DNA from: Candidatus Thorarchaeota archaeon
GTDB taxonomy: Archaea > Asgardarchaeota > Thorarchaeia > Thorarchaeales > Thorarchaeaceae
Direction: 5' to 3'
Assembly: GCA_048882485.1 (NCBI GenBank)
Contig: JBHLRP010000003.1
Span: 1 to 64,000 of the forward strand
DNA length: 64,000 nucleotides
Shown: positions 19,009-22,401 of the stretch, in pieces
How positions within the stretch are numbered: the stretch's first letter is position 1
Layout: each line of letters starts with the position of its first letter
Program-made: the position numbers and the translations under genes
The notes under the pieces: model-generated
The model's database searches: none
Seen by the model: the letters and a program-made list of their open reading frames with translations, nothing else
What the model was told of the DNA's origin: nothing

Positions 19009-19314
19009 ATGACATCATTCAGCACTGTGCTCGCAGAGTGTCCACAATGCGATCACCGATGGAATGCTCCTGTGTTCATGTCTTTATGCACTTGGCTAAA
19101 TCCAAAGATGGTGAAAGACCTCTATGAGAATGGCAGCCATATCGAGTGCCCAAACTGTGGCACGAGCATTCAGGTGCATCATAATATTCTAATCAACTGT
19201 CCGAAGGGGATGTTCTATATCGACACGAGTCAAGACATCTTTGATATGAGGTATAAGCTCTATGAATGGGGAATTGTCAATCTGGACGGAGAAGTTGTGA
19301 ACTCGCAATTCTAA
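19009..19314 (+). CDS. Zinc-ribbon protein (CpXC-like)
   Basis: CPQC and CPNCG pairs. Confidence 0.75.
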   Translation: MTSFSTVLAECPQCDHRWNAPVFMSLCTWLNPKMVKDLYENGSHIECPNCGTSIQVHHNILINCPKGMFYIDTSQDIFDMRYKLYEWGIVNLDGEVVNSQF

Positions 19315-19319
19315 CTAAG

Positions 19320-19392
19320 AAGAAGGTGAGCGGACGACAGCCCGAAGACATGTCGTCCGCTCGGCCGAGCTCGACTCGGATCTTACTCGGTA
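19320..19392 (-). ncRNA. Candidate small non-coding RNA with cUUCGg-capped hairpin
   Basis: Minus strand: 12-bp perfect stem gagcggacgaca/tgtcgtccgctc plus gtc-TTCG-ggc; ccgag/ctcgg hairpin; upstream TATA (ctatatatg about 19412-20); downstream ccttcttctt. Confidence 0.55.
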
Positions 19393-19504
19393 ACAAGAAC
19401 TATTGATTTCTCATATATAGGGCATGCAATACCGGCAAAACAGGTGTATCTAAACACACTTAGACTTTATCGGGTTCTGAACGAAAATGAAATTGAAAGG
19501 AGGA

Positions 19505-19539
19505 GTTGAGTCAGGATTGTATACACTATCCTGGTCAAC
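19505..19539. terminator. Hairpin 3' of the small basic ORF
   Basis: gttga-g-tcaggat / atcctgg-tcaac. Confidence 0.4.
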
Positions 19540-19562
19540 ACATCCTTCTGATCTGAGTTATA

Positions 19563-19766
19563 TCAGCGAACGATTGTGGCTCTATTATCGATAAGCCCTC
19601 TATCTTTGAGCCGCTCCAAGTTCTTAACCGCTGCTTCTGCCGCTCTGTGACGGCGAACGATTTTGACGTCTGGATGCTCTGTGGTGATCTCATCCATCCT
19701 GCTCTTCAGCGGTCTAATCTTGGCAATCGCTCTCTTGAGGGTTGGAATTCTCTTTACTTCTAACAT
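19563..19766 (-). CDS. Small basic hypothetical protein (67 aa)
   Basis: MLEVKRIPTLKRAIAKIRPLKSR...; protein-like amphipathic composition; GAGTGTGA SD-like sequence upstream; 3' hairpin. Confidence 0.65.
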   Translation of the reverse strand: MLEVKRIPTLKRAIAKIRPLKSRMDEITTEHPDVKIVRRHRAAEAAVKNLERLKDRGLIDNRATIVR

Positions 19767-19792
19767 TATTATCACACTCTATATCCAGTGAG

Positions 19793-20100
19793 TTACAATG
19801 GCAGCGAATATCCATGATCCTGCCAATACCTTGGCACCTGTTTCTGAGGAGGAAGTGTTTCCAATGGACCGAAACGAAATCATGGCCAATGTTCTCGCAT
19901 TGGCAAGAAATTCTCCATCAATTGCCATTTTAGGTGATTCTTGGCATTGGGGTTGGACTTTCGCTGCCATTTGTAATCATCATCCCGAAAATATGGCAAT
20001 TTATATATAAATTTATTGCCCAAAGCAAGATTTATCAACGATTGCCGATACTAAGATATATGGTGGATTACCGGTAGCATACTTTTTAAGTAGGTTTGCC
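19793..20100. promoter_or_regulatory. Array of GGCA-N17/18-TGCC inverted sites, long inverted repeat and palindromic TATA in the divergent intergenic region
   Basis: Pairs at 19800/19821, 19902/19923, 19943/19965, 19995/20017 and degenerate 20076/20097; atggcagcgaa (19798-808)/ttcgctgccat (19960-70); tttatatataaa 20000-11. Confidence 0.6.
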
Positions 20101-20146
20101 GACAATTTTTCACTGTCTGGGAGCGAATACTTGAGTTGAAGACCTA

Positions 20147-21238
20147 ATGAAAATCCACGCGAACTTGGACGAAACCGATGTACGAATTCTGAAATCTCTA
20201 GCCGAGCATAGGAAGAAAGTATCAACCCGTGAATTGAGTGATGAGCTTGACATACCAGACAGAACTGTCAGATATAGACTGAGGAAGCTCAAGGAGAAAG
20301 GATTGCTATGTCCTCCCAAGCTCCAGACGTATGAGAGAAAACTTGGTCTAGGTGAGAACCTAGTGCTTCTCCAGAGTAATCCGTCAATGGAGCAGCAATT
20401 GATTGATCTCTTGGACGATACCGAGTTCTTTTACTATTATGGGCCCACCTATGGCAAATATGATGGCTTCATGGTCTATGCAATGTATCCACTAGTAACG
20501 CCGAGGATGGTGCAGCAGCTAGCTGAAGAGATGATGGACAGGGATCTTATCAAGGACTACTTCATAATGGATATGGTAGACTACACTCGAAAGATGGCAG
20601 TACTCGAGCCTCTATTACCCGAGAGTGACTGGTCATGGGATGAATGGTCTGAGAAGATTGAACAGATCATGAAGAATGACTGTGAGATCGATTTGGGTCT
20701 CGAGGAATTCCCAAAGGCGGTGAAATTCGACTATACCGATATCCAGATCATCAAGCATATGGTAGAGAATCCGACCAGTACTCTGAAAGAGGTTGGTGAT
20801 GCATTGGAGCCAGCAATGTCTCTGACTCAGGTACATAAGCGTGTCAAGAGGCTGGAGGATGAAGGAATCATCAGAGGCTTTAAACCCTCTTTCACGCCTT
20901 TCAAGGAATCTGTTTCAGTTTCAATATTCTTCAAATCCCGCGACCATGCGAAGAAGCTTCTATGTGGCTTCACAAGGCTGCCTTTCGAAATCAATATCGC
21001 AATGGAGAACAAGTCAACCTACAACATATGGGTGATGATGCCATCGAGTGAATTGAATCAGTTCCTCCAGAGAATTAACTTCTTCAGAAAATATACCGAA
21101 GAATTCTTCATCCAAATGTTCATCAAAGGCAAAAGCAAAGGCTACACCCATCTACTTACAGCATTCAATCTTGATACTCAGAGCTGGGAGATGCCTATCT
21201 CCGAAACCTTGGTGAAAATCAAGGAGATCACCCAGTAA
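20147..21238 (+). CDS. Lrp/AsnC-like transcriptional regulator with two wHTH-RAM modules
   Basis: LDETDVRIL..L...STRELSDELDIPDRTVRYRLRKLKEKG and FDYTDIQII....TLKEVGDAL...VHKRVKRLEDEGII. Confidence 0.88.
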   Translation: MKIHANLDETDVRILKSLAEHRKKVSTRELSDELDIPDRTVRYRLRKLKEKGLLCPPKLQTYERKLGLGENLVLLQSNPSMEQQLIDLLDDTEFFYYYGPTYGKYDGFMVYAMYPLVTPRMVQQLAEEMMDRDLIKDYFIMDMVDYTRKMAVLEPLLPESDWSWDEWSEKIEQIMKNDCEIDLGLEEFPKAVKFDYTDIQIIKHMVENPTSTLKEVGDALEPAMSLTQVHKRVKRLEDEGIIRGFKPSFTPFKESVSVSIFFKSRDHAKKLLCGFTRLPFEINIAMENKSTYNIWVMMPSSELNQFLQRINFFRKYTEEFFIQMFIKGKSKGYTHLLTAFNLDTQSWEMPISETLVKIKEITQ

Positions 21239-21295
21239 GGCATCCACAAATGTTACAGAGACATCAAGGTTTAAAACAGAATTTGCCTTTGCTGC

Positions 21296-21460
21296 GTTGA
21301 CAGAAATGCCACGAGGAAATATCACACATTATTGGTTCCCGCTTATTAGTGGGAACTAGTGTTGAGCTCTCTTCCTCGTGTTGTCGACTTCTTCTGATTG
21401 CGGTCCTCTCGGGGAAGAGGACTCCATTGCCAGCTACACGCCAGGGGCGATAAGCTGTCA
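21296..21460 (+). ncRNA. Highly structured RNA / 5' leader
   Basis: Stems 21296-302/21382-88, 21310-18/21372-80, 21333-43/21348-58 (G-U pairs on + strand), 21403-09/21416-22, 21431-35/21453-57; TATA tttaaaa 21270-76. Confidence 0.6.
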
Positions 21461-21493
21461 TCTGTGTGCTAACCTCGAGGAGGAAAATGGAAA

Positions 21494-21706
21494 ATGTCAG
21501 CTCGAGAAGCACGAAAACGAAAACGCAAAGTAAGACGTGAAATGAACAAGAATGAACTTAGATGGTACACCGCTGCCTTCGCAGATATATTGGATACTAG
21601 GCATACCTCTCCTAACTTACCACTTCGTGACTATATCGCGTTGACACCGCGGATTAATTCCAATCGACGTCTGGGCAGATATATTGACACGAAGGTGAAG
21701 GAATAA
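21494..21706 (+). CDS. Small basic protein with N-terminal Arg/Lys-rich motif
   Basis: GAGGAGG SD at 21477-83; MSAREARKRKRKVRREMNK...; 3' hairpin. Confidence 0.7.
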   Translation: MSAREARKRKRKVRREMNKNELRWYTAAFADILDTRHTSPNLPLRDYIALTPRINSNRRLGRYIDTKVKE

Positions 21707-21747
21707 CCGCAGCTCCATTCCTACAAGAAATAGTGTTTTGGACCAAA

Positions 21748-21790
21748 GCCCTGTGCATCAATCAGGCACATATTTGCTATTGCACAGGGT
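21748..21790 (+). terminator. Hairpin 3' of the small basic ORF
   Basis: gccctgtgca / tgcacagggt followed by ccttattttc. Confidence 0.5.
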
Positions 21791-21999
21791 ATACCTTATT
21801 TTCAGCCAAACTTACAGCAATTTTCCTGCCCGGTCAACTGCCTTTTCCTTTGAAGACATTGTTTTCTTGTGAGATTTCTTCATGTGACCGGCTTTTTCCT
21901 CATTAGAATGAAATGTTTGACCGCATGCTCCACAGGTTACTTTCGCTGAGATAGTACTCATACTCATCAGTTTCATATTTGGAATTAACTATAATGAAC

Positions 22000-22401
22000 T
22001 CATAATCTGGTTTGCTTTTCGCCAACAAATGCGACAGCATCAATCTCAATCAAACATCCATAGTGTAGCTCAGTTGTTGGGACCACAGTCCGAGCAGGTC
22101 TATGGTCTCCAAAGAATTCAGCGTACACCTCATTCACTCTACTCCACAGCGACACATTGGGAATGTAGGCTGTGGTTCTTAGCACATTTTCTTTTGAGCT
22201 GCCAGCAGCTTCTAGAACTTTGGAGAGGCTCTGCAATGCAGATCTTGTCTGTTCCTCGATTCCTCCTTCAACCGGTTGCCCCTTCTCTGGATCCATCGGC
22301 AATTGGCCTGAAACATATACAATGCCATCATGTACGACTGCTGAGGAGTAGTGAGCCTTGCTCTTCATCCTAGCCCTACTATCAACATCAACCATCTTCA
22401 A
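22000..22401 (-). CDS. RidA/YjgF family reactive intermediate deaminase
   Basis: YS.AV, VYVSGQLP, IEEQT, VNEVYAEFF...PART, IEIDAVA. Confidence 0.93.
   Translation of the reverse strand: MKMVDVDSRARMKSKAHYSSAVVHDGIVYVSGQLPMDPEKGQPVEGGIEEQTRSALQSLSKVLEAAGSSKENVLRTTAYIPNVSLWSRVNEVYAEFFGDHRPARTVVPTTELHYGCLIEIDAVAFVGEKQTRL

Follow-up and report, generated by a model that had tools for sequence, protein, structure and literature searches.

We analysed a 2.5-kb region (positions 19,320 to 21,790) of a 64,000-nucleotide stretch of DNA, hereafter the window, which comprises positions 1 to 64,000 of contig JBHLRP010000003.1 in assembly GCA_048882485.1 of a Candidatus Thorarchaeota archaeon (genome G000). 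The region is bordered on the left by a gene for a 101-aa CpXC zinc-ribbon protein (19009-19314) and on the right by a RidA gene (22000-22401). Between them lie a small RNA (sRNA) and a gene for a 67-aa protein (orfL70), both on the minus strand, followed on the plus strand by a tandem Lrp/AsnC-type regulator gene and, across a 255-bp spacer that carries a structured leader RNA, by an open reading frame (ORF) for a 70-aa basic protein (orfR70). A first-pass annotation, made from the letters of the window, had listed these features, and all of them were present at about the positions given there, each either above chance or conserved in related Thorarchaeota genomes. That structured non-coding sequence of this extent is unusual in so tightly packed a window was borne out as well: the ORF-poor gaps flanking the regulator gene, 832 and 761 bp long, rank third and fourth in the window, where the median gap is 71 bp. 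The annotation had recognised no named system, and indeed both mini-proteins and both RNAs are without a Pfam, NCBIfam or Rfam family. With the Rfam 15 covariance models, as it had suggested, no match was found in the window at gathering thresholds, and neither the leader nor the sRNA had a match at E <= 10. A tRNA scan of the window returned nothing relevant. A repeat or mobile element was ruled out, the leader RNA and the sRNA each being single copy in the genome.

The annotation had further proposed that the region is one compact circuit, with the sRNA, the leader and both basic peptides under the control of the tandem regulator. The synteny comparison that it called for showed the small ORFs and stems kept beside regulator orthologs in the genus of this genome (g1), where the order of divergent small ORF, regulator, structured spacer and small ORF is retained in at least 10 genomes, down to 54% regulator identity. 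This supports a single circuit, as does the position of the sRNA in G016, about 100 bp from the leader and divergent from it, with no regulator between them. Against it, the units dissociate among genomes. Regulator orthologs, 97% to 46% identical, were found in at least 11 related genomes, and the regulator adjoins the leader/orfR70 pair only in genus g1. The pair occurs without an adjacent regulator in genera g5, g6, g7, g23 and g25, and it is present in G012 and G016, which lack the regulator ortholog; conversely, in G020 (genus g5) the regulator and the 67-aa gene are present and the leader is missing. We therefore regard a single circuit as very improbable. Since the units occur apart beyond genus g1, the supposed module is better read as at least two autonomous units that are neighbours here by chance. 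We consider it fairly probable that the region comprises three independent conserved units, adjacent only in this genus: the regulator unit, a ribosome-read leader switch before orfR70, and the sRNA.

The leader RNA and its upstream frame

The spacer between the regulator gene and orfR70 had been described as a multi-stem RNA of about 165 nt that starts where a TATA box predicts the transcript start. Its structure is conserved and its start held up, but it appears not to be a free small RNA; rather, it is the leader of an mRNA with a conserved upstream frame. Conservation begins at the start, about 21299-21302, that is predicted from the TATA box at 21270-21276 (plus strand), and the 255-nt spacer folds with z = -3.2 against shuffled sequence. 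By a DNA search and then a covariance model, with an alignment of 30 and then 37 copies, the leader was found in 37 of the 87 genomes of the order, representing six of 17 genera and always in single copy; a sample of 125 genomes from the phylum's other families yielded no copy. Wherever the pairing could be tested, in 36 genomes from six genera of one family, leader and orfR70 occur together; the 37th leader copy is cut by a contig end. Likewise, an orfR70 profile found the protein in 36 genomes, each time directly behind the leader RNA.

The orfR70 gene (21494-21706, plus strand) encodes a 70-aa basic protein with the pattern MS[AG]..RKRKRK..R..K.E[VI]R....FAD.I....FP.REY..LT. It matched no Pfam or NCBIfam family and fell into 16 clusters, all small, among 1.84 billion representative proteins; its named homologs are all Thorarchaeota hypothetical proteins. 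The AlphaFold2 models of orfR70 and of orfL70 are single long helices of low to medium confidence; in orfR70, one long basic helix spans residues 3-36 (pLDDT about 90) and the remainder is disordered. From its composition, our guess is that orfR70 binds nucleic acid, and the RNA-binding role that the annotation gave to the basic peptides is likewise a guess of this kind. The hairpin that had been noted 3' of this ORF was confirmed, and like the ORF it is conserved: a CCCUGUGCA/UGCACAGGG stem plus a T run (21748-21803) lies between convergent genes and resembles a terminator, with a stem that is invariant and a loop that varies in six genomes.

The leader contains an upstream open reading frame (uORF) of 17 codons, MPRGNITHYWFPLISGN, at 21306-21359 on the plus strand, with the stop codon TAG. 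Its AUG and in-frame stop are kept in all 37 copies, in which the frame runs open for 16-18 codons to a TAA or TAG at one and the same alignment position. Length changes inside the uORF, counted as at least four independent indels or as three separate gaps, always come in multiples of three, and in genus g5 the AUG itself has moved by one codon; the gaps just downstream of the frame, in contrast, are of 1-2 nt. The penultimate codon, for Gly, occurs as GGG, GGA, GGT and GGC, and the encoded peptide is variable in its N-terminal half and conserved at its C terminus as [YN]W[FL][HP]x[IL]SG[N]. In each of 36 loci, a TATA-like box has its first base 32-38 nt before the uORF AUG, so that the 5' untranslated region (UTR) would be no longer than about 3-8 nt. 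Archaeal operons usually have this layout, in which a leaderless cistron comes first and the second is led by a Shine-Dalgarno sequence (SD), here a strong one. Based on the in-frame indels, the synonymous Gly codons, the conserved C terminus and the leaderless layout, the RNA is therefore read as a bicistronic mRNA in which a leader mini-gene comes first.

Three observations weigh against a coding interpretation. The Trp codon is missing in three of the 37 genomes (G015, G080 and G076), a hairpin of the leader (H1, described below) pairs the Tyr-Trp codons with the final codon and the stop, and the third position of the stop codon, a purine, is also paired in H1. RNA pairing alone could conserve these codons, so part of the uORF conservation is explicable at the RNA level and could mimic coding conservation. 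If so, the short frame would be accidental and the leader would act purely as RNA, either as a small-ligand riboswitch or through the basic 70-aa protein, whose Arg/Lys-rich helix might repress its own translation as in ribosomal-protein leaders. We regard this alternative as unlikely, as it does not account for indels that come in multiples of three inside the frame and not outside it, for the constant spacing of TATA box and AUG at all loci, or for a third Gly-codon base that varies to the non-pairing U and C; a match to an Rfam family is also wanting. Judged by these comparisons, translation of the uORF is quite likely.

Alternative helices and a proposed ribosome-driven switch

The leader is arranged around two types of complementary segment, all on the plus strand. 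Segments of the GAGG type are segment 1, which is formed by uORF codons 2-4 (CACGAGGAA), segment 4 (GGGGAAGAGGAC) and segment 6, the SD of orfR70 (GAGGAGG); those of the CCUC type are segment 2 (CUCUUCCUCGUG, 21367-21380), segment 3 (GGUCCUCUC) and segment 5, a CCUC just before the SD. In a helix spanning 21310-21380, segment 1 at 21310-18 is predicted to pair with UUCCUCGUG of segment 2 at 21372-80 and to enclose hairpin H1 (21330-21362), with 97% of cells paired. Segments 3 and 4 would form hairpin H2 (21402-21423), which has four compensated pairs. A third hairpin, H3 (21427-21461), is variable and optional: six of its pairs covary within genus g1, and it is absent in genus g7 and in G016, G083 and G063. 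Segments 5 and 6 (21473-21483) are conserved in most genera.

Two arrangements of these segments were found to be conserved. The resting fold, in which helix 1:2 encloses H1 and segments 3 and 4 pair, is 97% paired over the 37 copies against at most 57% in slid controls, and six of its pairs have changed on both sides. The alternative helix 2:4, of 10-13 bp, is 92-93% paired against at most 71% in slid controls, and it is the most stable duplex, with -21.3 kcal/mol compared with -15.2 for 1:2 and -13.3 for 3:4. The few sequence changes that occur are informative. Segment 4 of G066 and G081 carries an A in place of a G, and to match it both partners of this segment, 2 and 3, carry a U in place of a C. 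Three genomes of genus g7 (G055, G022 and G057) have lost both a U of segment 2 and an A of segment 4, and in G022 a U-A pair of helix 2:4 has been replaced by C-G. When the uORF plus the next 12 nt were blocked, the minimum-energy folds of several genera formed 2:4 and left segment 3 unpaired. The SD, in turn, is complementary to segment 2 (-14.7 kcal/mol) and to segment 3 (-8.7 kcal/mol). By its aligned sequences, the leader is thus a set of mutually exclusive predicted helices, 1:2 plus 3:4 versus 2:4, of which 1:2 makes use of the uORF itself.

The leader is about 75-80% identical between genera, compared with 35-45% for the orfR70 protein, and it is more conserved than the protein behind it because each segment has two partners. 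The near invariance of stems and loops, for example of H2 and of UAGUG in H1, is also what aptamers or protein-binding sites display and would suit a purely RNA-level leader; it is equally explained by the two alternative partners of each segment. A coding frame over H2 was ruled out, as the frame differs between genera, and a reading of H1 as an H/ACA guide was discarded, since no ACA box is present and the 3' side of its internal loop is not conserved. Downstream of H2 comes CUCCAUUG or CUAGGUCU and not the U run of a trp-type terminator; with no U tract there, trp-type transcription termination is unlikely.

We propose the following mechanism. Transcription would start 3-8 nt before the AUG of the mini-gene; about 130 nt of structured spacer separate the latter from the SD-led orfR70. 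With the uORF idle, segments 1:2 and 3:4 would pair, and the SD would be held only by a weak local 5:6 stem. A ribosome on the uORF, whether translating or paused, would melt H1 and keep segment 1 open, so that segment 2 is freed to form the stronger helix with segment 4 and the CCUC-rich segment 3 is released. In the simplest relay, whose direction is our own proposal, the released segment 3, with segment 2 competing, would pair with the SD of orfR70 and turn the main gene down. Ribosome occupancy of the mini-gene would then set the amount of the 70-aa protein. Occupancy may depend on the supply of Tyr-, Trp- or Phe-tRNA at the consecutive YWF codons, or alternatively on arrest by the conserved C terminus of the nascent peptide.

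Taken together, the leader is probably a ribosome-driven RNA switch that controls orfR70. Two results speak against such a switch. The leader helices are nearly invariant, which keeps covariation statistics weak, and 31-159 of 500 shuffles reached the observed 2:4 pairing. In addition, thermodynamic and ensemble models did not show the SD becoming clearly more or less accessible from one state to the other, and in the genome of the window the SD is mostly paired in both.

A plain two-gene operon would also yield a translated uORF. The 17-aa peptide would then be a functional micropeptide or the precursor of a modified peptide, and the spacer would stabilise the mRNA or set the protein ratio. 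The conserved C-terminal motif and the strict linkage of the peptide with orfR70 are in keeping with this, but the N-terminal half of the peptide evolves freely, and the spacer carries conserved, mutually exclusive helices that involve the uORF. Moreover, the genes flanking the leader/orfR70 pair differ from genus to genus, with no maturase or transporter gene conserved nearby; a gene neighbourhood shared by the leader unit across genera was ruled out on the same grounds. We consider a plain operon of this kind highly unlikely. The ribosome-driven switch could point to a wider principle, which we put forward tentatively as a serious possibility: that Thorarchaeota use ribosome-read mini-genes as switches, in the present case as a five- or six-segment relay with a leaderless first cistron that senses aromatic aminoacyl-tRNA or nascent-peptide arrest and controls a lineage-specific nucleic-acid-binding mini-protein.

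Relation to known leader switches

To our knowledge, leader-peptide attenuation is known only from bacteria, eukaryotic uORFs aside, and few cis-acting RNA switches are known in archaea. Our literature search found no archaeal or Asgard case of leader-peptide attenuation, and an archaeal Ribo-seq paper merely lists possible uORFs (PMC11456600).

The closest likeness is to the erm/cat attenuators (ermCL-ermC, cat86, cmlA), in which a short leader ORF on the same mRNA likewise lies within the first strand of mutually exclusive helices, and in which ribosome occupancy re-pairs downstream segments and alters access to the SD of the next gene, as is proposed here. The Thorarchaeota leader differs from them in its archaeal host, its near-leaderless first cistron and the absence of an antibiotic-resistance gene. 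Its wiring is also different, with 1:2 plus 3:4 opposed by 2:4 rather than 2:3, and with the SD in a sixth segment instead of segment 4. The trp-type attenuators (trpL, pheL, hisL; Rfam RF00513 and relatives) are more loosely similar, in that they have codons for particular amino acids, here Tyr-Trp-Phe, and ribosome-dependent hairpins. In contrast to them, the leader has no terminator and no Rfam match, and each of its regulatory codons is single and not invariant. The downstream gene encodes an orphan 70-aa basic protein and not a biosynthetic enzyme, and the neighbouring genes are unrelated, so the codons do not correspond to a pathway.

Leaderless short first cistrons that control downstream genes were described as poly-Cys ORFs in mycobacteria (bioRxiv 10.1101/834739), where the codon repeats reportedly match the regulated pathway; the leader studied here has no codon run and no known pathway. 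A C terminus conserved up to the stop codon together with a variable N terminus is shared with arrest uORFs, such as TnaC and the eukaryotic conserved-peptide uORFs (CPuORFs), for example AdoMetDC MAGDIS. The W-F-(H/N)-x-I motif of the uORF is reminiscent of KWFNID of TnaC, a likeness offered as a lead only. The distance from Trp to the stop codon is 7-8 residues here and 12 in TnaC.

If the switch is real, the lineage closest to eukaryotes would employ the coupling of ribosome position and mRNA folding in regulation, and the leader would be an archaeal counterpart of bacterial attenuation. With about 190 nt it offers a compact, testable model in which clear mutants are possible. Two orphan mini-proteins and a new sRNA at this locus also merit study.

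The regulator unit, the small RNA and neighbouring genes

The regulator gene (20147-21238, plus strand) encodes a protein of 363 aa with two modules, each composed of a helix-turn-helix (HTH) and a putative effector domain, in agreement with its first description as a two-module Lrp/AsnC-like regulator. HTH_24 (E = 1.9e-18) and the AsnC-type HTH (E = 1e-12) were each matched twice, at residues of about 7-53 and 195-243, and both halves of the protein align with full Lrp/FFRP proteins in the PDB and with NCBIfam LrpA, LysM and Lrp. There was no match to Pfam PF01037 in the regulator; the alignment with PH0061 (residues 6-116) spans the RAM / AsnC_trans_reg effector domain, and that with NCBIfam LysM, residues 195-314 on profile positions 2-119 of 136, runs through the effector domain.

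The spacer between the regulator gene and orfL70 had been noted as an intergenic region of about 300 bp rich in GGCA/TGCC inverted sites. The density was confirmed, but the spacer is 380 bp long. It holds 11 GGCA/TGCC in 371 bp, the highest density in the window, where the mean is 2.9 +/- 1.8. Four of the six GGCA-N16-19-TGCC sites in the 64 kb of the window lie in this spacer, where they form a putative operator array of four GGCA-N17/18-TGCC palindromes (19798-20023) at 19800-24, 19902-26, 19943-68 and 19995-20020. By our own arithmetic on these coordinates, the distances from centre to centre are about 102, 42 and 52 bp, near whole helical turns. The last palindrome brackets a palindromic TATA box (20000-20014) and is kept in orthologs at 46-56% identity, those of genus g5 included. 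Conserved blocks of the spacer in six genomes coincide with the GGCA/TGCC half-sites. Nearer to the regulator gene (20082-20100, plus strand), genus g1 and the g5 ortholog share a second TATA-like box, CTTTTTAAG, with a TTTGCC half-site after it.

Strict TGGCA-N16-18-TGCCA sites number 36 in the 3.96-Mb genome, about as many as expected from pentamer frequencies by a hand estimate, and three of them lie in the regulator spacer, the only cluster in the genome. A search for a regulon by means of the palindrome was given up, as the genome-wide number is near this chance estimate and the sites cluster at this locus only. A 70-codon frame in the spacer (19798-20010) looked conserved by tblastn; it was rejected as a gene because the conservation follows the GGCA/TGCC blocks and not the codons, and because the frame is interrupted by a TGA in G005 and shifted in G011.

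An operator over the TATA box is a classic layout, in which an archaeal repressor occludes TBP/TFB at its own, possibly bidirectional, promoter. The predicted layout of sites over the TATA box fits autoregulation of the regulator, which most likely binds the four palindromes cooperatively and represses or tunes its own promoter and that of the 67-aa gene. Its winged HTH (wHTH) domains, putative effector domains and multiple palindromes in its own promoter region, one of them over the TATA box, liken it to other Lrp/AsnC (FFRP) regulators with clustered, phased sites. It differs from them in that two apparently complete modules are fused in one chain of 363 aa, half-sites are spaced by two helical turns, and the partner gene encodes an orphan 67-aa protein.

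The palindromic sites are confined to this spacer and absent from the sRNA and leader promoters, which again argues against control of the whole region by the regulator. A GGCA (21240) and a TGCC (21283), 39 nt apart, bracket the leader TATA box; neither half is kept in G002, G011, G014 or G009, and the pair is probably there by chance. What might link two of the units is a CCGGTA..GCAT element that precedes the TATA boxes of both the sRNA (19421-19438) and the proximal promoter of the regulator (20068-20081). It is absent in G016 and may be a shared promoter or factor site.

Two further observations concern the regulator unit. A block in the middle of the spacer, GAGGAGGAAG (19848-19857), is conserved in six genomes, with a similar GAAGGAGGAGAA in distant orthologs; on the minus strand it is a CCUCC-rich stretch in the would-be long 5' UTR of the 67-aa gene. 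Elsewhere in the same genome (locus L097, contig C10, 15400-20400), a paralog of the regulator with 371 aa and 34% identity has a divergent gene for a 94-aa wHTH protein in the place of the 67-aa orphan, and the locus is followed by a DNA-methylase-like ORF.

The orphan gene itself, orfL70 (19563-19766, minus strand), encodes 67 aa with the motif RRHxAAEAAxxLExxKxRGL and lies divergently beside regulator orthologs in 11 loci, genus g5 included, down to 46% identity. It had no Pfam or NCBIfam match. For both orfL70 and orfR70, the ESM Atlas, a word search of 5.8 billion proteins and a profile search of 1.84 billion proteins returned only Thorarchaeota hypothetical proteins. The AlphaFold2 model of orfL70 is of low confidence, with a C-terminal helix at residues 32-66. 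The ORF is conserved, and so is the hairpin that had been reported 3' of it: together with a T-rich tract it resembles a terminator (19479-19548, minus strand) and is kept in six genomes while its flanks diverge.

The candidate sRNA on the minus strand (19317-19391, about 75 nt) was likewise substantiated. It starts with ACCGAG and is predicted to fold into hairpin 1 (CCGAG/CUCGG) and a 12+3-bp hairpin 2 with a UUCG loop, followed by a pyrimidine-rich tail; the fold has -38.9 kcal/mol and z = -5.5 against shuffled sequence. Its promoter (19410-19438, minus strand) consists of a TATA box at 19410-19421, which is invariant in six genomes, plus an upstream element, TTGCCGGTATTGCAT, and the 5' end of the RNA lies about 22-25 nt downstream of the TATA box. 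Across the six genomes, 98% of cells in hairpin 2 are paired, four pairs have changed on both sides, and one position shows three pair types. These compensatory changes and its own promoter indicate that the element is a real small RNA. It is present in six genomes of the genus, at a variable distance from the 67-aa gene, and absent from the close relative G011. Neither C/D boxes nor an ACA box with a pocket, as in archaeal C/D-box or H/ACA guide sRNAs, are visible in its sequence, which had no Rfam match. Base pairing between the sRNA and the leader was considered and dropped: by eye, only a 7-nt palindromic match was seen, which is not conserved in G016.

Some neighbouring genes were also recorded. 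In G004 and G006, a membrane-protein gene intervenes between the regulator and the leader; the inserted protein (L011 2722-3228 and L012 2841-3221, oriented) has 126-168 aa, is Lys/Glu-rich and has a hydrophobic C-terminal part. Genomes of genus g7 have another AsnC-type HTH regulator, of a single module, not more than about 1 kb upstream of the leader unit (L043 1-495 and L046 3-398, both on the minus strand), and at one g7 locus a GNAT plus OB-fold gene is located between the two. Finally, a 54-aa ORF convergent to orfR70 (21812-21976) gave weak, below-cut-off matches to C2H2 zinc fingers and is kept in G011, G015 and G016.

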